A model generated the notes under the pieces. That model searched no databases, was not told where the DNA came from, and worked only from the letters and a program-made list of their open reading frames with translations. This document shows positions 6,077 to 46,284 of a DNA stretch of 64,000 nt, in pieces (positions within the stretch are counted from its first letter, which is position 1; each line of letters begins with the position of its first letter). Both the position numbers and the translations under genes were made by a program. This stretch comes from an uncultured Clostridia bacterium (GTDB taxonomy: Bacteria; Bacillota; Clostridia; Christensenellales; CAG-917). Where the stretch lies: positions 17,228-81,227 of the forward strand of contig CALVQW010000008.1 in NCBI GenBank assembly GCA_944358385.1, in the 5' to 3' direction.

Positions 6077-6942
6077 CCGCTATGTACACATCTCTTTCCG
6101 ACACATTCACTTTGTCCGACAGCGTCAAGATCCCCTGCGTGGGCTTCGGCACTTATAAGACGCCGGACGGCGACATCTGCACCGAGAGCGTCCTCACCGC
6201 CCTCGACGCGGGCTACCGCCACATCGACACCGCGGAGTTCTACTTCAACGAGGAGGGCGTGGGACAAGCCCTCAAAACGACTTCCGTCCCGAGGAGCGAC
6301 ATCTTCCTCACCACCAAGGTCTGGAACACCCACCAGGGCTATGACGCCACTCTCGCCGCCTTCGACGCCTCCGAGAAACGGCTGGGGACGGCACCCGATC
6401 TCTACCTCATCCACTGGCCCATCACCAAGGACTACAAGGACGACTACCCCGCCCGTTTCATCGACACCTGGCGCGCGCTGGAACACCTCTACGAGGAAGG
6501 ACGCGTCCGCGCCATCGGTGTGTGCAACTGCCTGAAACAACACTTGAACGTGCTGTTTGATGTATGTAAAGTGCCGCCTATGGTGAATCAGATCGAATAC
6601 CACTTCGGCTTCACCGACGCCGACCAGCTGGAAGCAGCCGCCTTCTCGCGCGCTCACGGCATCGTCGTCGAGGGGTGGGCACCCCTCTGCCGCGGCAGGG
6701 CTTTCGGACATCCCGTCCTCGCCGCCGTCGCACAAAAGCACGGCAAAACCGAAGCGCAGGTGCTGGTGCGCTACTGCCTGGAACACGACATCCTTCCCCT
6801 GCCCAAATCCGCCACCCCCGCCCGCATCGTCGAGAATGCGGACGTGTTCTCTTTCGCCCTTGATACGGAGGATCTCGCCGCCCTCGACGCCGTCTCCTCG
6901 ATAGGCCGTCTCGGCCCGCACCCCGACGAAGCGAGGCACTGA
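6073..6942 (+). CDS. aldo/keto reductase
   Basis: C-terminal 289 aa of ORF 5464..6942, starting MTAMYTSLSD with an ATGA overlap onto the degV stop. AKR motifs GYRHIDTAEFY, LYLIHWP and IGVCN. Confidence 0.9.
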   Translation: MTAMYTSLSDTFTLSDSVKIPCVGFGTYKTPDGDICTESVLTALDAGYRHIDTAEFYFNEEGVGQALKTTSVPRSDIFLTTKVWNTHQGYDATLAAFDASEKRLGTAPDLYLIHWPITKDYKDDYPARFIDTWRALEHLYEEGRVRAIGVCNCLKQHLNVLFDVCKVPPMVNQIEYHFGFTDADQLEAAAFSRAHGIVVEGWAPLCRGRAFGHPVLAAVAQKHGKTEAQVLVRYCLEHDILPLPKSATPARIVENADVFSFALDTEDLAALDAVSSIGRLGPHPDEARH

Positions 6943-6977: not shown

Positions 6978-7006
6978 AAAAAGCGGGCATACGCCCGCTT
7001 TCTTTT
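6978..7006 (+). terminator. rho-independent terminator of the AKR gene
   Basis: AAGCGGGC(6981-6988) atac GCCCGCTT(6993-7000) followed by TCTTTT. Confidence 0.8.
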
Positions 7007-7068: not shown

Positions 7069-7435
7069 GCGAACTTTGAGGCGTGCTTGAACATGACGTA
7101 CACTCCTTCGGAGACGGGACTACGCGCCGCAAAGCCAAACTTTCATCGCGGGCGTCTTGCGCCCGCGTTTGAAAGTCGCGGCGCGGATCTGCGACCTCGC
7201 AAGCTAGATGAATACCTAAATAGAGGCGTCGCTCGTGCGCGTCGAGTCGCCCTCCTCGCCCCACGAGCGACGCTCAATTAGTACCGGCATCCGCTTGGTT
7301 ATGTGAGTGCGATTACCAAAATTTTTGGTAAAATCAGAAAGTTAGTCCCGCATTTTGGGAGGAGCGAACTCTATTCCGAGTGGGGGAGGAGTCCCGTAGG
7401 GGAGGTGGGGGACAATAACTCCCCTGTCAGAGGAC
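7069..7435 (+). repeat. unclassified multi-helix element, copy 1 (candidate structured RNA or MITE/PATE-like)
   Basis: Reverse-complement homolog at 26304-26709. Hand alignment gives 23 mismatches in 203 ungapped nt and 5 mismatches in 88 nt. It consists of a chain of 7-12 bp GC helices with no credible ORF. Confidence 0.75.
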
Positions 7436-7506
7436 AAGACTTTATCCCGAAGGGAAGGAGGGGGTATCTGACTCCCCCGCGAGACGTACAGCTTGTCAGC
7501 AGTATG

Positions 7507-7540
7507 TTTTAAAACGAAAACCCCCGTCTCACGACGGGGG
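7507..7540 (-). terminator. rho-independent terminator downstream of the mreB-like gene
   Basis: On the minus strand: CCCCCGTC gtga GACGGGGG followed by TTTTCGTTTT (plus-strand stems at 7521-7528 and 7533-7540). Confidence 0.8.
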
Positions 7541-7576
7541 CTCTGACACAGCAATTCGCCGAACAAACGCTAATAC

Positions 7577-7702
7577 ACTGAGCGCGATATTTGGATGCAG
7601 AACGCGAAAGCACCCCTTTTTCGGTGAGGCGCGTACTTGGACGTACGTAACGAGCCGAAAAAGGGGTGCTGACAAAGTTCTGCGCCAAATAGCGCGCTCA
7701 GT
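7577..7702 (-). repeat. long-hairpin module H1 (126 nt) overlapping the mreB-like stop codon
   Basis: Arms ACTGAGCGCGATATTTGG (7577-7594) and CCAAATAGCGCGCTCAGT (7685-7702) with one mismatch. Inner helices are GCAGAAC/GTTCTGC and GCACCCCTTTTTCGG/CCGAAAAAGGGGTGC. The apex is GCGTAC(7631-7636)..CGTACGT(7642-7648). Confidence 0.8.
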
Positions 7703-8696
7703 CTAGTTTGATGCCGATAAGATCGCTCAGGAAGCGCTTATCCTCCAAAAACTTCATGCCGCCTATGGCTACGCTGCTGGGACCGTCGCTGAGGTGGGTG
7801 AGGGGGAGTTCGAAGGCTTGTTCGAGGTACTCTTTGAGTCCGGGGATGCGGGCGGAGCCGCCGGTGAGGAAGATGCCTTTGCGGAGGATCTCGGCGGAGA
7901 GTTCCGGGGGTGTCCTGTCGAGGACGTTCATGACCACTTCGATGATGTCGTCCACGAGGGGAAGGACGGCGTCACGCATATCCGCGGCGGTGATGGCTAC
8001 ACTCTTGGGCGCACCGTCCCTTCCGCCGCCCGAAACGGCATAGCTACCCTCGTCGTTGAGGTAGAAGGAGAGAGCGGAGGTCTTGATCTTCTCCACGGTG
8101 TAGTCGCCGAGTTTGACGCCGTAATTCATATAGATGTCGTCGATGATGGCGGCATTGAAGGCGTCTCCCGCGATGTTGACGGTCACGCCGCACGCGATGC
8201 CTCGGTTGGTGACCGCAGCCACCTCCGTCTTGCCGCCGCCGATGTCGAGGAAAAGCCCGCCGATGCTGCCCGTGTAGGCGAGAAGGGAAAGCGGAGCTTC
8301 CACGAGAGTGACCTCTTTGACGCCCGCCTTGACAAAGCATTTCTCCACCGCCCTGCGGTCGCCGCTCGTCATGGAGCAAGCCACGCTGACCACGGCATTG
8401 ACCTTGGGGGCGAACACCCCGGAAGGCAGGATCTTTTTCAGGAAATGTTTGAGCAGCATGACGAACATCTCGTCATCCGCGATCATGCCCTCTTTGACGG
8501 GAGCGATGACGCGCGCGCCGCCGAGGGAGGAGGACATGATGCTCTCCGCACGGTAGCCCGCCTCGCGTATGACATACTTGTCGCCGTTCTTTTCGGCGAG
8601 AGCGATGGCAGGCTCGCGCAACACGGGACCTATCCCCTTCTGGCATATGGTGATGAACTTGCTGCCGAGGTCAACCGACAATTCTATCTGCGCCAC
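7698..8696 (-). CDS. MreB/Mbl-like actin-fold protein (divergent paralog)
   Basis: 332-aa ORF. VDLGSKF, LDIGGGKTEVA and FLTGGSARIPGL match the actin/MreB phosphate and adenosine motifs. The N-terminal region differs from the canonical MreB GIDLGTANT. Confidence 0.75.
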   Translation of the reverse strand: MAQIELSVDLGSKFITICQKGIGPVLREPAIALAEKNGDKYVIREAGYRAESIMSSSLGGARVIAPVKEGMIADDEMFVMLLKHFLKKILPSGVFAPKVNAVVSVACSMTSGDRRAVEKCFVKAGVKEVTLVEAPLSLLAYTGSIGGLFLDIGGGKTEVAAVTNRGIACGVTVNIAGDAFNAAIIDDIYMNYGVKLGDYTVEKIKTSALSFYLNDEGSYAVSGGGRDGAPKSVAITAADMRDAVLPLVDDIIEVVMNVLDRTPPELSAEILRKGIFLTGGSARIPGLKEYLEQAFELPLTHLSDGPSSVAIGGMKFLEDKRFLSDLIGIKLD

Positions 8697-10814: not shown

Positions 10815-11636
10815 TCAGTCACATGATTTTATACATTTCGCGGGGCATTTGGACGCGCAAAGTCCGCACCCCACGCACTTGCCGTAGTCGATGACGGGCA
10901 GATTGTCTTTGAGTTCGATGGCGTGTTCGGGACACACCTTGGCGCAAAGCCCGCACCCCACGCAGCCTTTGGAGCACATGGCGCGCACTTCCTTGCCCCC
11001 TCTGAGGCAGTTTGAGCAGGCGATGTACACCTTCGCGCTTGCGGGAACACGCTTGACCAGCCCCTTGGGACAGGCGGTGATGCACTTGCCGCAGGTGATG
11101 CACTTTGTCCTGTCCACCTCCGCATAGCCCGCATCGCGCACGTCTATGGCGTGGGTGGGACAGGCGTCCGTGCACGAACCCATGCCCAGACATCCCCACG
11201 GACACACTTTGCGCCCGCCGCCCAGCAGTTCCATGCTGCGGCAGTTGCCGTAGCCCATATACTCATACTTGTCGTTGGCGGAGTTGCCGCCGTTACAGGC
11301 GATGACGATCTTGGTCTCCTCCGCATCCACCGCGACGCCGAGGATCTCGCCTATGATCTTCTTCTCTGAGGCGGCAGTCGCCGAGCAGGAATTCACATCC
11401 GCCTTACCCTCTGCGAGAGCTTTTGCGAAGGCGTCACAGCCCGCATACCCGCACGCGCCGCAATTCGCACCCGAAAGATGCTTGCGGATCTCCTCCTCCT
11501 TCTCGTCCTTTTGGACGGCGAACTTCTTGCCCAGCACCGCGAGCAGCACGCCGAACACCGCAGCAAGGGCGAGCAGCACCAGCGCGGACCACAACACGGT
11601 CATGGGATCTACCGCACACAAAACATTCACGCTCAT
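10815..11636 (-). CDS. rnfB: Rnf electron transport complex subunit B
   Basis: N-terminal TM helix, the CGACGYAGCDAFA cluster and several CxxCxxCxxxCP ferredoxin motifs. Confidence 0.9.
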   Translation of the reverse strand: MSVNVLCAVDPMTVLWSALVLLALAAVFGVLLAVLGKKFAVQKDEKEEEIRKHLSGANCGACGYAGCDAFAKALAEGKADVNSCSATAASEKKIIGEILGVAVDAEETKIVIACNGGNSANDKYEYMGYGNCRSMELLGGGRKVCPWGCLGMGSCTDACPTHAIDVRDAGYAEVDRTKCITCGKCITACPKGLVKRVPASAKVYIACSNCLRGGKEVRAMCSKGCVGCGLCAKVCPEHAIELKDNLPVIDYGKCVGCGLCASKCPAKCIKSCD

Positions 11637-11646
11637 ACCGCCCTCC

Positions 11647-12234
11647 TCATGCTATCATGCCCGAAAACGCCGTGAACGCGAGGCTCATTATGGACGCCGC
11701 CACCAGCGTGATGGGGAAGCCTCTGAAAGGCTTGGGAACGGCGTCGATGTGCATGCGTTCGCGTATGCCCGCGAGCAGTAGGATCGCTATGGTGAAGCCC
11801 GCGCCGCTGAACACTCCGTTGAGGAAGGACATGAGCAGGCTCTCCGCCGACGCGATCCCGTAAGACTGGATGTTGAGTATCGCCACGCCCAGGACGGCGC
11901 AGTTGGTGGTGATGAGGGGGAGATAGACTCCCAGCGCGCTGTACAGCGCGGGCATGAACTTTTTGAGCACCAGCTCCACGAGCTGCACGAGCGCAGCTAT
12001 GACGAGTATGAACGCTATCGTCTGCAAATACTCTATCCCCGCCGCCACCAGCAGCTTCTGCACCAGCCAGGTGAACACCGACGCTATGCCCATGACGAAG
12101 ATGACCGCAAGCCCCATGCCGAGAGCGGTGTCCGTCTTTTTGGACACGCCGAGGAAGGGACAGCATCCGAGGAACTGACAGAGGACGAAGTTGTTGACGA
12201 ACATCGCGCCTATGATGAGCAGGAAGTATGTCAT
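11647..12234 (-). CDS. rnfA: Rnf complex subunit A
   Basis: FVNNFVLCQFLGCCPFLGVS signature in a 195-aa polytopic protein. Confidence 0.9.
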   Translation of the reverse strand: MTYFLLIIGAMFVNNFVLCQFLGCCPFLGVSKKTDTALGMGLAVIFVMGIASVFTWLVQKLLVAAGIEYLQTIAFILVIAALVQLVELVLKKFMPALYSALGVYLPLITTNCAVLGVAILNIQSYGIASAESLLMSFLNGVFSGAGFTIAILLLAGIRERMHIDAVPKPFRGFPITLVAASIMSLAFTAFSGMIA

Positions 12235-24414: not shown

Positions 24415-24788
24415 AACGCTTTGTCATCGCCCTCATCATACTTGCTCTCATCATCACCGCGGGCGTGCTGGAAAGCGTGCATGTGGAAAGGACGTTCGGC
24501 GAGCTTGACAAGCGCATCGCCGCCTTGGAGGACGCCATCAAAAGCCCGACGGACGACGCCCTCGACGAGGTGAAGGCACTCTCCGCATGGTGGGAAAAGA
24601 GGCGGGCGGAGCTTGAACTTTTCACCTGGTCGCCCGATCTCAGAGCCTTCTCCGTCGCCCTCGCGGAGACGGAAGGATCGCTGGAATGCGGGGACGACAA
24701 AAACGCGCTGAGCAAATGTCAGTCGCTGCTCACCATGTCCCGCAACCTCAAAATGCTGTTGGATTTCTCACCCTCCGACATCATCTAG
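24411..24788 (+). CDS. DUF4363-like small membrane-anchored protein
   Basis: 125 aa with an N-terminal TM helix, ATGA-coupled to the DUF421 gene. This is the usual DUF421/DUF4363 pairing in Clostridia. Confidence 0.6.
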   Translation: MKRFVIALIILALIITAGVLESVHVERTFGELDKRIAALEDAIKSPTDDALDEVKALSAWWEKRRAELELFTWSPDLRAFSVALAETEGSLECGDDKNALSKCQSLLTMSRNLKMLLDFSPSDII

Positions 24789-26147
24789 CCCCTGCACTTC
24801 GGCTTTGAGGTCATAGATGTCGCCCGCGCCGAGGAAAAACACCTTGTCATACTCCCCCGCCCGCGAAAGCGCAATATTCCATGCATCATCAAGCGAAACT
24901 GCAAGATGAACCTTGCATTCGGGGAATAAACGCTCAATGGCAAAAGCGAGATCCCGCGATGTACCGCCCGCTTTTGCCCTCTCCCGCGCGGCATAGACGG
25001 GGAGCAGGATCACCTCTTCCCTTGCCCCCAGCACCTCCGCGAACGCGTCGAGATAACTAGCCGTGCGGGTGTAGGTGTGCGGCTGAAAGACGGGCAGCAC
25101 ACGGCTCCCGTCCGACTCTGCGGCATCGAGGGTGCAGGCAAGTTCCGTGGGATGGTGGGCGTAGTCGAAGATGACTTCCGCACCGCACATCCTCCCCGCC
25201 CTTTCGCAGCGTCTGGTCACCCCCTTGAAACGGGAGAGCGCGGCACAGGCTCGGTGCATATCCGCGCCGAGAGCGACAGCCAAAGCGACGGCGAACGTCC
25301 CGTCCTCCGCGTAGTGCGCGCCTGCATACGACAGGGTGAAAGTGTCCGTGCAGTCCGCGGAGGAGACCGTCACCGTCTGTCCGCCTCCGCATTTCGGAAC
25401 ACTCGAAAAGAGGTATGCGCACTCCTTCATATGAGAACACTTCTCTCCTATGGTGATGTGCGCACCCGTGCATATGATCTCATCTCCCTCCCTCACTATG
25501 ACATAGGGACAATTTTCGACAAATTTCGCAAAAGTCTCATGCACCTCGCCGATGTCTCGGTAACAGTCGGGATGGTCGCATTCCATGTTGACGACGACGG
25601 CAATGTCCGGGGAAAGCGCGGTGAGATGCCGCCCGAATTCACAGGCTTCGGTGAGGAAAAGCTCGCGGGGAAGCTCGCCGCTCCCTCCGCACACGGTGAG
25701 GTTGCCCATGCCCACGGGCGTGCCGCCGATGTGCGCGACAAAAGACATCCCGCACTCTTTGAGGATATGCGCGGTCATCGCGGTCACGGTGGTCTTGCCG
25801 TGCGTGCCCGCCACCGCCGCCACCGTGCGGAAATCTTCCGCCACCGCGGCGAGGAACTCGTGCCTCTCCGTCACACGCTTGCCCAACGCGAGAGCGAGAG
25901 CCACCTCCTCATCCGTGAGCGGCACGGCGGAGGATCGCACCACCAGCCCCGCCCTTGCGATTATGTCCCTGCGCACGCCGCGATATACCTGCGCGCCAAG
26001 CGCGGCAAGCCTCTCGGTCGCGGCACTCAACACCCTGTCGCTGCCGCTCACTTCCGCCCCCGCCAGCAGACAATACTCCGCCAGCGCGCACATGCTCGCC
26101 CCGCCCACGCCCACAAAATGCACTCTTTCCCCTCTCAGATCAGGCAT
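24768..26147 (-). CDS. murC: UDP-N-acetylmuramate--L-alanine ligase
   Basis: HFVGVGGASMCALAEY and GTHGKTTVTAM. The ATG at 26147 is preferred over the TTG at 26153 used by the ORF track. Confidence 0.9.
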   Translation of the reverse strand: MPDLRGERVHFVGVGGASMCALAEYCLLAGAEVSGSDRVLSAATERLAALGAQVYRGVRRDIIARAGLVVRSSAVPLTDEEVALALALGKRVTERHEFLAAVAEDFRTVAAVAGTHGKTTVTAMTAHILKECGMSFVAHIGGTPVGMGNLTVCGGSGELPRELFLTEACEFGRHLTALSPDIAVVVNMECDHPDCYRDIGEVHETFAKFVENCPYVIVREGDEIICTGAHITIGEKCSHMKECAYLFSSVPKCGGGQTVTVSSADCTDTFTLSYAGAHYAEDGTFAVALAVALGADMHRACAALSRFKGVTRRCERAGRMCGAEVIFDYAHHPTELACTLDAAESDGSRVLPVFQPHTYTRTASYLDAFAEVLGAREEVILLPVYAARERAKAGGTSRDLAFAIERLFPECKVHLAVSLDDAWNIALSRAGEYDKVFFLGAGDIYDLKAEVQGLDDVGG

Positions 26148-26211
26148 ACTCAATTATATGCCGCCCCCGCCCGAACCGGAACGCACAAATGCCCGCACCA
26201 AAAAACCTACG

Positions 26212-26295
26212 GGGTTCAGGCGCGCTTGCTCGGAGTGTTCGTCGGGTTCAGGCGCGCTCGCTCAAAGTGTGCGTCGTGCTCAAAGAGTGTAAAAC
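26212..26295. repeat. 32-nt tandem direct repeat, about 2.6 copies
   Basis: GGGTTCAGGCGCGCTTGCTCGGAGTGTTCGTC (26212-26243), GGGTTCAGGCGCGCTCGCTCAAAGTGTGCGTC (26244-26275), and a partial copy GTGCTCAAAGAGTGTAAAAC. Confidence 0.8.
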
Positions 26296-26303
26296 GGGCT
26301 GAC

Positions 26304-26709
26304 GTCCTCTGACAGGGGAGTGAAAGTCCCCCTCCTCCCCTACGGGACTCCTCCCCCACTCGGAATAGAGTTCACTCCTCCCAAAATGCGGTACTGACTT
26401 TTTCATAAAGGCGCAAACCGCGTCTTTATGAAAACACCTCTTGAAAAAAGTTTGAGCCTCGCACTCACATAACCAAGCGGCGAACAGTACTCACTAAACG
26501 TCGCTCGTGGGGCGAGGAGGGCAACTCGACGCGCACGAGCGACGTTTCTACTTAATTTCTCATCTAGCTTGCGAGATCGCAGATTCGCGCCGCGACTTTC
26601 AAGCGCGAGCGCAAGACGCCCGCGGTGAAAGTTTGGCTTTGCGGCGCGTAGTTCCGTCTCCGAAAAAGAGACGTCATACTCAAATACGCCCGCTCAACCG
26701 CAAGTTCGC
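26304..26709 (-). repeat. unclassified multi-helix element, copy 2 (inverted relative to copy 1)
   Basis: rc(26459-26661) aligns ungapped to 7110-7312, and rc(26304-26391) aligns to 7348-7435. A different hairpin (26402-26432) replaces the copy-1 hairpin (7313-7331). Confidence 0.75.
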
Positions 26710-26819
26710 TGAACGCCGCCATTTGGATGAGCTGCGCGAAAAAGCCCCTTTCACAAAAGGGAGCGTACCAAATCGTACGTGACCGCATTGCGGAAGGGGC
26801 TTTGACAAAGCAGATCGCT
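26704..26819 (-). repeat. hairpin module H2 (lacks the outer 3' arm), terminator-like on the minus strand
   Basis: Its 5' arm TTCGCTGAACGCCGCCATTT is identical to the H3 arm. Helix AAAGCCCCTT (26741-26750) pairs with AAGGGGCTTT (26794-26803), and a minus-strand T-run follows. The apex is GCGTAC(26763-26768)..CGTACGT(26774-26780). Confidence 0.65.
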
Positions 26820-26835
26820 GGACTAACGCTAATTC

Positions 26836-26961
26836 GCTGAACGCCGCCATTTTGCGTCAGACAAGGAAGATGCCCTGCCGCGGGTGCGTGGCGTACTTTC
26901 CGTACGTGAGCAATCGCGGCAGGGCGTCTGACGCAGTATCACACAAAATGGTGGCGTTCAG
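26836..26961 (-). repeat. long-hairpin module H3 (126 nt) overlapping the stop codon of the AGPS-like gene
   Basis: Arms GCTGAACGCCGCCATTTTG and CAAAATGGTGGCGTTCAG with one G-T pair. Inner helices are CGTCAGAC/GTCTGACG and GCCCTGCCGCG/CGCGGCAGGGC. The apex is GCGTAC(26891-26896)..CGTACGT(26901-26907). Confidence 0.8.
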
Positions 26962-28757
26962 TCGAGTTCGGTGTGAACCACACCGGCCTTCTGCTGTTTC
27001 TCCTTCTCCTGTTCTCCGCCTTTCTCGTTCGCACCGAAGATACCGTTTTCGGTGAGGGTGCCGTCGAGGGCGAGGGTGCCGCCGGGGTTCATGAGACCTT
27101 CGGGATCGAAGTAGTGTTTGAGGGCTTTGTAGACGTTGTATTGCGAAGTGCCGATGGACTCTTCGAGGAAGGGGGCGAAGAGTTTGCCCACGCCGTGATG
27201 GTGGGAGAGCGCGGCACCCGACTTGGTGATGGCGTCGAGGATGCTGTAATGATACTTCTTGAAGGCTTCGAGATCGGTGGTCTTGATGACGAAGATGAAG
27301 TAGAGGTTGGCACCCTGCGGATAGCTGTGAGAAATGTGGGTGGTGCACATGGCGTCCGGCCATGCTTTGACCGCCTTTCTGACATCGAGATGCACCTGCG
27401 CCATATTGTCCCAGTTGACGGCGCACTCCAAGGTGTCGATGATGATGCCGTAGTCCTGGATGGTGTCCCTGAGATAAGGATCGGAGAATCTGCCGTGTTC
27501 CCACGCGGTGGTGACGTAGCCGGTGAGGGATATCGCGTTGTACTTGTGGGCGATCTTTCTCACGTTCTTTACGATGTTGCGCTGCAAGCCGTCCTCGCCG
27601 TCCGCGAAGCCGAGGAGGAGGCAACGCTTGTTGGGCTTGAAGCCCTTTGCCGCGAGCAGGGTGTTCAAGGGAGACTCCGCGATGCCGTACATATGCATCA
27701 TCATATCCGTCTCCTCCGCGTCCGAAAGGCGGAACACGGAAGGATAGCCGAACTCGCCCTGCATGACCTCGCGCATCGCCGCCATGCCATCCTCCCAAGT
27801 GGGGAACATATAGGAGAATTTGCGGTGTTTAGCGGACTTTTTGAACACTTTAAGTGTCACTTGCGTCAAAATGCCGAACGTCCCCTCGCTGCCCATCATG
27901 ATCTGGTCGATGTTGGGACCGGTGGCTTTGCGGGGCGCGGAATCCGTGCGGATCCTGCCCACGGGGGTGACATATTCCTGGCAGAGGACGAGGTCCGCCG
28001 CGCAGCCGTAGTAGGTGGAGTTCTGCCCGCTGCCGCGAGTCACCACCCAGCCGCCGACGCAGCTGTACTCGAAAGACTGCGGGAAATGTCCGCAGGTGAG
28101 GCGGTGTTTCGCGCCGAAGTTTTCGGGCGCGTGGTTGAGGATGTCCTCAAGGTCGGGACCGCTGATGCCGGGCTGGACGGTGATGGTCTGATTGACCTCG
28201 TTGAACGCCAGCACCTTGTTGAAATTCTTTCTGAGGTCGAGGAGCATGTTGGGAGAACACATACACTCCGTGCCTCTCGTCACGCTGGATCCGCCCGCAT
28301 AGACGTAGATGTAGATCTTGTGCTTTTTCGCAAACGCGACCAGCTTCTCGATGTCCTCGGTGGTGGAGGGATAAATGACGACGTCGGGGAGGTTCTCGAT
28401 GATGCCCTTTCTCAGGCGCATGATGTCCACCATGGTCTTGCCGTAGCAGACCTTGGCGCGAGTCAGCTCGTCCACTTCGACGTTGTCCGCGCCCAACATG
28501 TTGTTAAGCTCCTCGATCTGCTCCGCGGTGAGGCGGCTGGGGGCGTGGATGTCCACCACCTCGTTGCCGACGTCCACCATCTCTTTGAAGTCGTCGTCGG
28601 TGAGGTGGAATTTCTCCTTCACCAGCTTGTAAAGCCCCTCTTTGGGACGCTTGTAGGCGGCGGGATCTCCCCACTTCATTATGGAGCGGTAGCTGTCTTT
28701 GACGGGGGGATCGGTGATCCACTTGGGTTCGAACTCTTTGTAAGGTTTGTTGGACAT
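26958..28757 (-). CDS. FAD-linked oxidase, alkyl-dihydroxyacetonephosphate synthase (AGPS)-like
   Basis: ORF 26958..28841 trimmed to MSNKPYKEF behind the SD AAGGAGAAG. N-terminal extension with MKWGDP, FAD motif YAGGSSVTRG, and SHHHGVGK (the HHH loop typical of AGPS rather than GlcD-type SGEHGIG). Confidence 0.7.
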   Translation of the reverse strand: MSNKPYKEFEPKWITDPPVKDSYRSIMKWGDPAAYKRPKEGLYKLVKEKFHLTDDDFKEMVDVGNEVVDIHAPSRLTAEQIEELNNMLGADNVEVDELTRAKVCYGKTMVDIMRLRKGIIENLPDVVIYPSTTEDIEKLVAFAKKHKIYIYVYAGGSSVTRGTECMCSPNMLLDLRKNFNKVLAFNEVNQTITVQPGISGPDLEDILNHAPENFGAKHRLTCGHFPQSFEYSCVGGWVVTRGSGQNSTYYGCAADLVLCQEYVTPVGRIRTDSAPRKATGPNIDQIMMGSEGTFGILTQVTLKVFKKSAKHRKFSYMFPTWEDGMAAMREVMQGEFGYPSVFRLSDAEETDMMMHMYGIAESPLNTLLAAKGFKPNKRCLLLGFADGEDGLQRNIVKNVRKIAHKYNAISLTGYVTTAWEHGRFSDPYLRDTIQDYGIIIDTLECAVNWDNMAQVHLDVRKAVKAWPDAMCTTHISHSYPQGANLYFIFVIKTTDLEAFKKYHYSILDAITKSGAALSHHHGVGKLFAPFLEESIGTSQYNVYKALKHYFDPEGLMNPGGTLALDGTLTENGIFGANEKGGEQEKEKQQKAGVVHTELD

Positions 28758-28776
28758 GATCTTCTCCTTTTTGCGC

Positions 28777-29112
28777 TCAATATATGGTCGCCGTGGCGAT
28801 GAGATCGACATCCGTCCCCACGACGGACTTTGCGACCACATCTCCGCGGTGCAGTTTCTCGGTGACTCTGATGCCGTTGATGAAACGCATCAGTTCGGCT
28901 ATCTTGCTCTTGGGGATCTCGCCGTCCGTGCGGACGGGAAGCACGGGCATGCTCTCGAACGCGGTCGCCACGGTGGAACACACCGTACGCATGGGACAGG
29001 TCGCCTCCGCCTTGGCGAAAGCCTCCCCTTTCTTGCAGGTGTTGCCGGTGACGACTCCGTTCTCCACGGTCATGCGGCAGCCCTTTGGACACACTATGCA
29101 GACAAGTTCCAT
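28777..29112 (-). CDS. DUF1667 domain protein
   Basis: C-terminal 111 aa of ORF 28777..29433: MELVCIVCPKGCRMTVENGVVTGNTCKKGEAF. TGATG overlap with the upstream gene. Confidence 0.8.
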   Translation of the reverse strand: MELVCIVCPKGCRMTVENGVVTGNTCKKGEAFAKAEATCPMRTVCSTVATAFESMPVLPVRTDGEIPKSKIAELMRFINGIRVTEKLHRGDVVAKSVVGTDVDLIATATIY

Positions 29113-41131: not shown

Positions 41132-41148
41132 AAACGGGGGTTAAAATG

Positions 41149-41177
41149 TAAAAACGCCGCTTTAAACGGCGTTTTTT
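41149..41177. terminator. bidirectional rho-independent terminator between convergent genes
   Basis: AAACGCCG ctttaaa CGGCGTTT with an A-run upstream and a T-run downstream. Confidence 0.8.
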
Positions 41178-41195
41178 GTCATATCGTGCGTTTTC

Positions 41196-43340: not shown

Positions 43341-43381
43341 AAGAGCGCACCCTGCTTTGCGGGACATCCTAATAATATGAC

Positions 43382-43409
43382 AAAAACCGCGGTTTAAACC
43401 GCGGTTTTC
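43382..43409. terminator. bidirectional rho-independent terminator
   Basis: AAAACCGCGGT ttaa ACCGCGGTTTT. Confidence 0.8.
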
Positions 43410-43433
43410 TCATTTCAACTCATTATTCTGCGA

Positions 43434-46130: not shown

Positions 46131-46250
46131 ATTACCTCCTTATAAAATAAATCGTCACTCCCGAGACAAAGGAATGACGAATACACGAGCGGTATTAACA
46201 CTCCTCGGCAAGCATACATTGAGGCTTTCGCCGCTTGCTGTCTCAGGAAC
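46131..46250 (-). promoter_or_regulatory. putative L10 (rplJ) autoregulatory leader
   Basis: About 120-nt 5' UTR between the promoter below and the rplJ SD AAGGAGG. Called from position and length only; I did not verify the L10-leader fold. Confidence 0.4.
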
Positions 46251-46255
46251 GCGCT

Positions 46256-46284
46256 TATTGTAGCAAAGCGCGGGCTTTTTGTCA
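46256..46284 (-). promoter_or_regulatory. sigma-A type promoter for rplJ-rplL (TTGACA-17-TACAAT)
   Basis: Minus strand: TTGACA (46284..46279), a 17-nt spacer, then TACAAT (46261..46256). Confidence 0.65.

Follow-up and report, generated by a model that had tools for sequence, protein, structure and literature searches.

Bacterial dispersed repeats are usually simple palindromes. The ERIC (IRU) and REP/BIME repeats of enterobacteria are intergenic, are often located between convergent genes and near terminators, retain their hairpin through compensatory changes and occur in size variants due to internal insertions or deletions. BOX elements are modular and contain variable numbers of short sub-units. 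They are described, in the part of PMC3049150 used here, as thought to be parasitic and slow-moving and as affecting co-transcribed genes. We analysed a 64,000-nucleotide (nt) stretch of DNA from an uncultured Clostridia bacterium (GTDB lineage CAG-917; assembly GCA_944358385.1, contig CALVQW010000008.1, positions 17,228 to 81,227), which is called the window in the following and has a G+C content of 59.7%. It contains two copies of an element belonging to a family of non-coding dispersed repeats of about 350–390 nt, which are found in the chromosomes of uncultured, sporulating gut Clostridia. The family is uncatalogued, and none of the catalogued RNAs is related to it.

One strand keeps its fold through compensatory changes

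The two copies in the window are:

7086-7440, plus strand: copy 1, short class, 355 nt (nhmmer E value 2.4e-118; inverted repeat pairs)
26297-26684, minus strand: copy 2, long class, 388 nt (nhmmer E value 1e-135; alignments)

They share about 80% identity, the main difference being 32 extra bases in copy 2. Both are mutually inverted, with 87% complementarity between the arms 7107-7326 and 26445-26664 and 91% between a second pair, 7333-7435 and 26304-26406. Therefore the copy-2 strings quoted in an earlier note on this DNA, which was made from the sequence alone, are the antisense of its copy-1 strings; all features it quoted were found at the positions it gave. Outside the window 12 further full or partial copies were found (designated by L numbers). 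Copy 1, L118, L119, L115a, L115b and L129 form a short class, while copy 2, L090, L114, L116 and L117 form a long class defined by a 32-nt insert. By sequence, three alpha subtypes and a diverged beta class (L115b, L129, L114p, L119p) are distinguished, and copy 1 and L117 are mosaics of subtypes.

The earlier note proposed selection on a fold, to be checked by folding the copies and scoring compensatory changes. RNAalifold applied to ten copies predicted 74 pairs on the sense strand (−72.65 kcal/mol), 14 of them covarying, compared to 63 pairs on the antisense strand (−64.52 kcal/mol), nine of them covarying. For further counts the structure was fixed on copy 1 and then applied to 14 sequences. 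In this curated structure 86.5% of the cells were paired, as against 41–55% when the partners were slid by 1–3 columns. At the family level 13 pairs had changed on both sides, and none of 500 shuffles reached the observed pairing or covariation score. Copies 1 and 2 each fold 5–6.5 standard deviations better than dinucleotide shuffles on either strand. G-U cells outnumbered A-C cells by 76 to 20 over all helices and by 18 to 0 in the helices H3, H4 and H8 and the long-range helix described below. The plus strand at copy 1 and the minus strand at copy 2 are favoured as the folding strand, a preference to be read with the structure itself having been derived on that strand.

Differences between copy 1 and copy 2 affect only 6 of 152 paired columns (3.9%) but 39 of 186 unpaired columns (21%; Fisher p = 2e-6). 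Five pairs are concerned and none is broken; four became G-U pairs, while the fifth, a G-C pair at the foot of the central hairpin exchanged for A-U, shows full compensation. Where copy 1 has GAG(G)/CTC at the base of the CGTCGCTCGTG/CACGAGCGACG helix, copy 2 indeed has AAA/TTT. Thus, the claim that helices covary between the two copies holds insofar as all pairs are kept, but only one change is truly compensatory, and from the window copies alone the signal is real but rests on this one double change. At the family level compensatory change shows a strand-asymmetric fold, and selection on a fold is supported; the IS200/IS605-type ends which the earlier note considered as an example are not. 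The strong evidence comes from the 5′ hairpin and a long-range helix and not from the site which the note had flagged. The structural parts are:

26586-26648, minus strand: long 5′ hairpin of copy 2, consisting of H2, an internal loop, H3 and H4 (copy 1: 7123-7185)
26507-26519, minus strand: C-rich strand CUCCUCGCCCCAC of the long-range helix of copy 2, forming a pseudoknot with a local hairpin (copy 1: 7252-7264)
26348-26359, minus strand: purine strand GUGGGGGAGGAG of the same helix (copy 1: 7380-7391)
26460-26465 with 26385-26390, minus strand: H8 of copy 2, AGUGCG/CGCAUU (copy 1: 7306-7311 with 7349-7354)
26314-26347, minus strand: 3′ hairpins of copy 2, UCCC-GUA-GGGG (26337-26347) and GGGGGA-loop-UCCCCU (26314-26332)
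7392-7402 and 7407-7425, plus strand: 3′ hairpins of copy 1
26655-26673, minus strand: 5′ hairpin CGUCUC-loop-GAGACG of copy 2, homologous to short flanking repeat units (copy 1: 7097-7116)

Within the long 5′ hairpin H2 (CGCGCCGC/GCGGCGCG) is invariant, as is AGCCAA in the internal loop AAAGCCAA. H3 (ACUUUC/GAAAGU, alternatively GCGUUC/GAACGC or ACUUGC/GCAAGU) is 100% paired, with three of six pairs covarying. H4 reads CGCGGGCG/CGCUCGCG in copy 2, CGCGGGCG/CGCCCGCG in copy 1 and GGCGGU/ACCGCC or, in L137, GGGGC/GCCCC elsewhere; it is 92.5% paired and four of its eight pairs covary. A covariance model of the 5′ hairpin matched an independent, diverged example with a third inner-helix sequence in L137 (GCA_017886755.1; 69% MurC identity), where an approximately 500-nt relative of the element follows murC (7500-8010). 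This relative shares the 5′ hairpin (AGCCAA loop, ACUUGC/GCAAGU, GGGGC/GCCCC) and the 3′ module, while its middle is different and expanded, with C-rich and G-rich tracts that pair locally. In the loci of the relatives beyond L137 the model found no further copy.

The long-range helix is 98.5% paired and is formed in copy 1 by 12 pairs between CUCCUC-G-CCCCAC and GUGGGGGAGGAG. The beta class has UUCCUCC-G-CCCGU with ACGGGGGAGGAA, that is, three compensatory pairs plus a G-U intermediate. From the C-rich loop to the purine tract the distance is about 115 nt in short and 147 nt in long copies. H8, which closes a variable tip, is 93% paired with a conserved G-U pair and alternation of A-U and G-U. 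The stem of the 3′ hairpin (GGGGGA/TCCCC) is kept while its loop differs between copy 1 (caataac) and copy 2 (ctttcac), as the earlier note had observed; in other copies it is retained by a register shift (L090, L117, L119) or as GGGGG/CCCCC (beta class). Conserved unpaired motifs are AGCCAA, GGUUAUGU and UAA(A/G)UAG.

Two candidate interactions were rejected. Changes in UUGGUU, a putative tertiary partner of AGCCAA, are never compensated. A closing helix between the 5′ end and the 3′ G-run (alignment columns 17-21/357-361) competes with the 3′ hairpin and shows two states only, and was omitted.

The variable apical tip

At a single place the earlier note saw the two copies lose homology and one helix being replaced by another. 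The segments concerned are:

7312-7348, plus strand: variable apical segment of copy 1, with an AU hairpin at 7313-7331
26391-26459, minus strand: variable apical segment of copy 2, with a decayed AU hairpin and an inserted hairpin (26400-26434)

The hairpins themselves are present, TTACCAAAATTTTTGGTAA at 7313-7331 in copy 1 and, in copy 2, TTCATAAAGGCG/CGTCTTTATGAA at 26402-26413 and 26421-26432 with 12 pairs on the plus strand, one of them G-T. Both flanks, GGTTATGTGAGTGCGA and CCGCATTTTGGGAGGAG, are also conserved, and they are the two arms of H8. However, the loss of homology is not complete: copy 2 retains the AU hairpin in decayed form (GGCTCAAACTTTTTTCAAGAG) immediately 5′ of the extra sequence, which amounts to 32 nt instead of about 28. 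Instead of an exchange of helices, a single 32-nt insertion is found beside the decayed hairpin. It is common to all five long-class copies, which all carry an AU-hairpin remnant next to it, and was found nowhere else in the sequences compared. On the sense strand, which all other helices favour, the inserted hairpin contains an A-C mismatch in four of the five long copies and a G-C pair in L117; this mismatch is the G-T pair of the opposite strand.

The segment between the H8 arms was folded for 11 copies. A good AU hairpin is formed in copy 1 (−6.0 kcal/mol) and L118 (−5.1 kcal/mol), while L115a, L115b and L129 show weak, differing hairpins and L119 has no stable one (−0.7 kcal/mol, z +0.4). 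According to this, the question whether the variable position always holds a hairpin is answered positively for copy 1, L118 and the long copies but not for L119, with weak structures in the others, so that the frequent lack of structure which the earlier note had named as counting against its proposal is partly observed. The conserved helix thus ends at the flagged site in a tip open to expansion, and this position does not require a helix. The insertion is shown to be a single event that happens to be a hairpin and is tolerated at the tip. An apparent swap of helix for helix can thus be an insertion into a tolerant loop, and more copies were needed for true evidence.

Distribution, edges and turnover of the family

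A metagenome scan with TATTCCGAGTGGGGGAGGAGTCCC yielded six contigs, at least one of them from human gut, with six full and several partial copies. A genome collection was scanned with the purine-only pattern GGGAGGAG-N12-18-GTGGGGGAGGAG, which mostly gave chance matches in high-GC genomes; among the matches listed L090, an uncultured Clostridia metagenome-assembled genome (MAG), was the sole true relative. Altogether nine full and several partial copies are distributed over the window, one MAG and six metagenome contigs. BLAST against phages and plasmids revealed no true copy, and neither did five pattern scans of viral contigs, in which the only matches were four to a 16-mer and due to chance; ACGCGCCGCNNAGCCAA and GGTTATGTSRGTGCGA are among the non-repetitive patterns of the element.

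When the whole window was compared to Rfam 15 at the gathering threshold, only a ribosomal protein L10 leader was found (RF00557, 55.8 bits; 46137-46265, minus strand). At E values up to 10 copy 1, copy 2 and L115b gave scattered chance matches, none common between copies. Models of group I and group II introns gave no match at E values up to 10, and the element is not located within a gene. No motif of the element was present in 200 of the 408 supplementary files, which were searched, of a catalogue of structured RNAs of the human microbiome (PMC8040213). A riboswitch or 5′ leader, which would be a single copy in the 5′ UTR of the gene it regulates, does not fit either: the element occurs many times and next to unrelated genes, convergent terminators enclose copy 1 and there is no 3′ terminator. 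The copies differ by indels of 1, 4 and 32 nt, and their short open reading frames (ORFs) are cut or lie in different frames. Because the indels are not multiples of three and frames are not shared, the element is non-coding, as the earlier note had argued. A small ORF of the 3′ domain (VPHFGRSELYSEWGRSPVGE) that seemed to be conserved was discarded, its similarity being DNA identity and its frame being broken in the beta class.

Copy 1 is flanked by an aldo/keto-reductase gene (plus strand, ending at 6942) and an mreB-like gene (minus strand, 7698-8696), copy 2 by a FAD-oxidase gene (minus strand, 26958-28841) and murC (minus strand, 24768-26147). Ahead of each copy the upstream gene has a terminator-like hairpin (6980-7001 at copy 1, 26762-26745 at copy 2), and copy 1 sits between convergent terminators. 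Most copies of the family follow closely on the end of a gene, in most cases with a convergent gene on the other side; L115b begins at the stop codon of a histidine-kinase gene. Flanking genes differ between loci and none is common. According to a Pfam scan the neighbours are housekeeping genes, among them those for a histidine kinase, aldose epimerase, ABC transporter, beta-galactosidase, MurB, phosphofructokinase, aspartate carbamoyltransferase and acyltransferase. No transposase, tnpA, tnpB or iscB gene was found beside any copy whose neighbours were readable. As in the window, inverted copy pairs are present in L114 and L115.

No promoter-like site was detected near copies 1 and 2, nor in or upstream of the element, and no intrinsic terminator at its 3′ end, though alpha copies carry a U-run there. 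Copy 2 is not a leader of murC, since a TATAAT motif lies six bases ahead of the murC ATG (26145-26163, minus strand). A Shine-Dalgarno sequence is lacking at this place, and the murC motif GGCATATAATT(G/C)AGTATGCC is kept in L136 and L137, which suggests that murC mRNA may be leaderless in this lineage.

Turnover is best seen at the site between mreB and the reductase gene. Relatives with 78–80% MreB identity have a spacer of 166–242 nt and no element. In L120 (86% MreB identity) the spacer also lacks the element and carries an AT-rich ORF of 213 amino acids (11106-11747) with no Pfam domain, so that this spacer seems to be an insertion hotspot. L129 and L134 are the closest relatives, their MreB being at least 90% identical to P0001, which itself is 94% identical to the MreB of the window. 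Both carry a copy of the beta class here, placed and oriented like the copy of the window. It is full length in L129, while in L134 (9040-9219, 8988-9043) two clean internal deletions removed whole sub-structures, namely the inner 5′ hairpin, which is reduced to GCCGC-AGG-GCGGC, and the stretch from GUGCGA to the second purine tract. Directly after copy 1 the window contains:

7445-7490, plus strand: remnant of a beta-class 3′ module, CCCGAAGGGAAGGAGGGGGTATCTGACTCCCCCGCGAGACG (nhmmer match 7445-7484)

This remnant aligns to the 3′ end of the L129 and L134 copies and is nearly identical to that of L134. Three forms therefore exist at one orthologous site (alpha copy plus beta remnant, full beta copy, deleted beta copy), which points to replacement by recombination and decay by deletion. 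Furthermore, contigs of relatives with 89% MreB identity stop about 220 nt past mreB, and a contig with 98% MurC identity begins 16 nt before murC. An end of the contigs at or beside the element is the effect that multi-copy repeats have on assemblies; judged from these two sites, the element probably limits the assembly contiguity of close relatives. Taken together, the unrelated contexts, the three-form site, deletions, mosaics and the absence in distant relatives show that the family behaves as a fast-turning-over selfish repeat.

The edges of the element are built of shorter repeats. At the 3′ end of copy 2 they are represented by:

26212-26276, minus strand: two 32-nt tandem units (GGGTTCAGGCGCGCTCGCTCAAAGTGTGCGTC on the plus strand) abutting copy 2 (TRF period 32, 2.0 copies, 87% matches)

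Related units of 32 to about 58 nt with the form TTGAGCACGACGNACAC + TCCGAGCGAGCGCGCC flank other copies on either side in tandem arrays, and the element's own 5′ hairpin looks like one such unit. Ends of the IS200/IS605 type would have a conserved 4–5-nt target directly 5′ of the left end. TTGA(A/G)C is always present at the 5′ edge, yet it is part of a short repeat unit which is also found without the core. As to terminal inverted repeats of the kind that MITEs have, the ends of the copy 2 type read TGACGTCTCT and (reverse complement) TGACGTCCTCT, a similarity that is weak or absent in copy 1, L119 and the beta types. No direct repeat of flanking host sequence, that is, no target-site duplication, was found, and a repeated TTGAGCACGACG motif belongs to the arrays of flanking units.

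Besides the element a second repeat family, here called “B”, occurs in the window (7556-7690, 26700-26800 and about 26810-26900) and in the flanks of L090, L118, L119, L129 and L135. It forms a long terminator-like hairpin with a CGTACG...GTACG core and the tail CTTTCGCGTTCTGCATCCAAATGGCG (consensus CTTTCGCG(T/C)TCTGCATCCAAAT(G/A)(G/T)CG), and its position, immediately behind stop codons, is that of a terminator. In copy 2, L090, L118 and L119 “B” adjoins the 5′ side of the element, always in the same orientation. Elsewhere in the window, two 45-nt terminator-like palindromes (41140-41184 and 43375-43419), inverted and 82% complementary, bracket a 2.2-kb stretch with two genes. ARAGORN found no tRNA or tmRNA gene in the window.

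Interpretation and comparison with known systems

The best explanation, to which we assign a probability of about one half, is that the element is non-autonomous and requires its fold in cis in order to be propagated by a factor encoded elsewhere. The folded molecule would be a transcript or, with lower probability, a single DNA strand, and the trans-acting factor would copy or insert the element. Only well-folded copies would leave descendants, copies would in addition swap segments by recombination, and any influence on neighbouring genes would be secondary. Selection at the level of the element is favoured because individual sites tolerate loss, deletion and replacement.

Several points weigh against this explanation. 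The covariation stems from about four lineages (the three alpha subtypes and the beta class) whose copies recombine, so that few independent events are counted, and the counts of pairing and of G-U pairs are inflated because the structure was derived from the same sequences. The central 12-bp hairpin (CGUCGCUCGUG/CACGAGCGACG) is paired in only 74.5% across the family and is not conserved in L119 and the beta types; the L119 type has a G-rich internal loop at this place, and in the mosaic L117 the hairpin is broken. The persistence of deleted copies in L134 indicates weak constraint at any given site. Filled and empty sites could not be aligned base for base as the spacers are too diverged, so that transposition itself is presumed. 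The analysis revealed neither a mobilising enzyme nor an unambiguous terminal inverted repeat or duplicated target, and the element has no promoter-like or terminator-like site of its own. Each window copy lies between a terminator and the terminator or promoter of the next gene, so that transcription, too, is presumed.

An unlikely explanation, but one to be taken seriously, is a cis-acting RNA module serving the host, as proposed for REP/BIME, ERIC and BOX. Read-through transcription of the upstream gene would include the module, which would serve as a 3′ stabiliser, a processing site or a transcriptional insulator between neighbouring genes. The strand-specific fold would suit such a module, as would the location of most copies just past gene ends and usually between convergent genes, with L115b beginning right at the histidine-kinase stop codon, and the fixed orientation of the “B” hairpin ahead of copy 2, L090, L118 and L119. 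However, both window copies come after the terminator-like hairpins of the upstream gene, and a 12-bp long-range helix with invariant loops exceeds the needs of a stabiliser. Moreover, at the site between mreB and the reductase gene relatives lack the element and L134 holds an internally deleted copy, so that the element is dispensable there.

Rather less probable is that the family represents large, pseudoknotted functional RNAs of a new class which are themselves mobile. Such an RNA could be self-processing in a ribozyme-like manner, or it could serve as a guide or scaffold recruiting a host or transposon enzyme by which it is copied into sites just beyond gene ends. If true, the family would represent a bacterial, RNA-structured non-autonomous element resembling short interspersed nuclear elements (SINEs).

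We consider it doubtful that the copies are stand-alone genes for trans-acting RNAs, either scaffolds or guides similar to an orphan omega-RNA of the TnpB/IscB type or protein sponges. Size and complexity resemble those of large structured RNAs, AGCCAA, GGUUAUGU and UAA(A/G)UAG are invariant and single-stranded, and copy 1, copy 2 and L090 have 35 nt of the 3′ domain in common without any change. Guide-RNA-bearing non-autonomous derivatives of IS200/IS605 are known, as described in the part of PMC10055086 used here. Against this, the promoter and terminator that were looked for were not found, no tnpB, iscB or transposase gene is near any copy, and the HEARO and IS605-orfB RNA families gave no match. 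Furthermore, the 3′ boundary leads into shared repeat units instead of unique guide-like sequence.

It is improbable that the fold is one of single-stranded DNA and that the copies derive from, or are the ends of, an element of the IS200/IS605 type (HUH transposase) or the REP/RAYT type. Strand-specific pairing with tolerated G-T pairs, hairpins near both ends, the constant TTGA(A/G)C at the 5′ edge and the breaking of contigs at the repeats would agree with such an origin. The two ends of these elements share a hairpin, however, whereas the 5′ (CGTCTC...GAGACG) and 3′ (GGGGGA...TCCCC) hairpins are unrelated here, and such ends are characterised neither by a conserved 12-bp helix that bridges more than 100 nt nor by eight or more helices. 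Copies occur in opposite orientations in the window, L114 and L115, while the cumulative GC skew falls across nearly the whole window, including, in this small sample, the 19 kb between the inverted copies 1 and 2. No Y1 transposase was seen. IS200/IS605 thus fails in the three defining features tested, which are related end hairpins, a nearby partner gene and orientation bias.

It is most improbable of all that no selection acts on the fold and that covariation reflects shared ancestry and block recombination of hairpins born in one step by template switching (able to create hairpins according to the part of PMC8794818 used here) or palindromic insertion, for although the 32-nt insert is one event common to all long copies, the arms of local hairpins are inherited together and copies 1 and L117 are mosaics, differences between copies 1 and 2 are fivefold rarer in paired columns (p = 2e-6), three different complementary sequences form the inner helix in the 5′ hairpin and three pairs of the long-range helix have changed on both sides, which is hard to reconcile with such an origin as its arms are more than 100 nt apart.

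Among known systems the BOX elements of Streptococcus pneumoniae, together with RUP and SPRITE, are similar in being small non-coding intergenic repeats with extensive secondary structure confined to one species group. The modularity of BOX also has its counterpart here, in the 32–58-nt units present in variable number on both sides, the 32-nt insert, the lack of two modules in L134 and the duplicated 3′ module of copy 1. Nevertheless, the sequences are unrelated, the element belongs to a clostridial lineage of high GC content, and the core is far larger (about 300 nt) and contains a long-range helix and invariant loops instead of simple extended hairpins. ERIC and REP/BIME resemble the element in their intergenic location, often between convergent genes and near terminators, in hairpins retained by compensatory changes and in size variants due to internal insertions or deletions. 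However, ERIC is a single 127-bp imperfect palindrome and REP a palindrome of 20–40 nt, and both are without the multi-helix pseudoknotted fold and the strong strand asymmetry of the element.

PATEs, which are non-autonomous IS200/IS605 elements, and the omega-RNAs of TnpB/IscB are likewise non-coding, multi-copy and a few hundred nt long, and they have a strand-specific fold including a pseudoknot (in part PMC10055086). In contrast to these, the element has no nearby tnpA, tnpB or iscB, its end hairpins are unrelated, it shows no orientation bias and it is not matched by the HEARO and IS605-orfB RNA models. OLE, ROOL, GOLLD and raiA RNAs resemble it in length (300–400 nt), many covarying helices, conserved unpaired motifs and hosts among the Firmicutes/Clostridia. 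These RNAs are usually encoded by single-copy genes with their own expression signals and are represented in Rfam, whereas the element is multi-copy, decaying and recombining, without visible promoter or terminator and without an Rfam match. It is unusual for a repeat of about 350 nt to preserve at least eight helices by compensatory change, together with a 12-bp long-range helix and invariant loops, and the family would add either a new class of large structured RNA or a new kind of non-autonomous element in abundant uncultured gut Clostridia.

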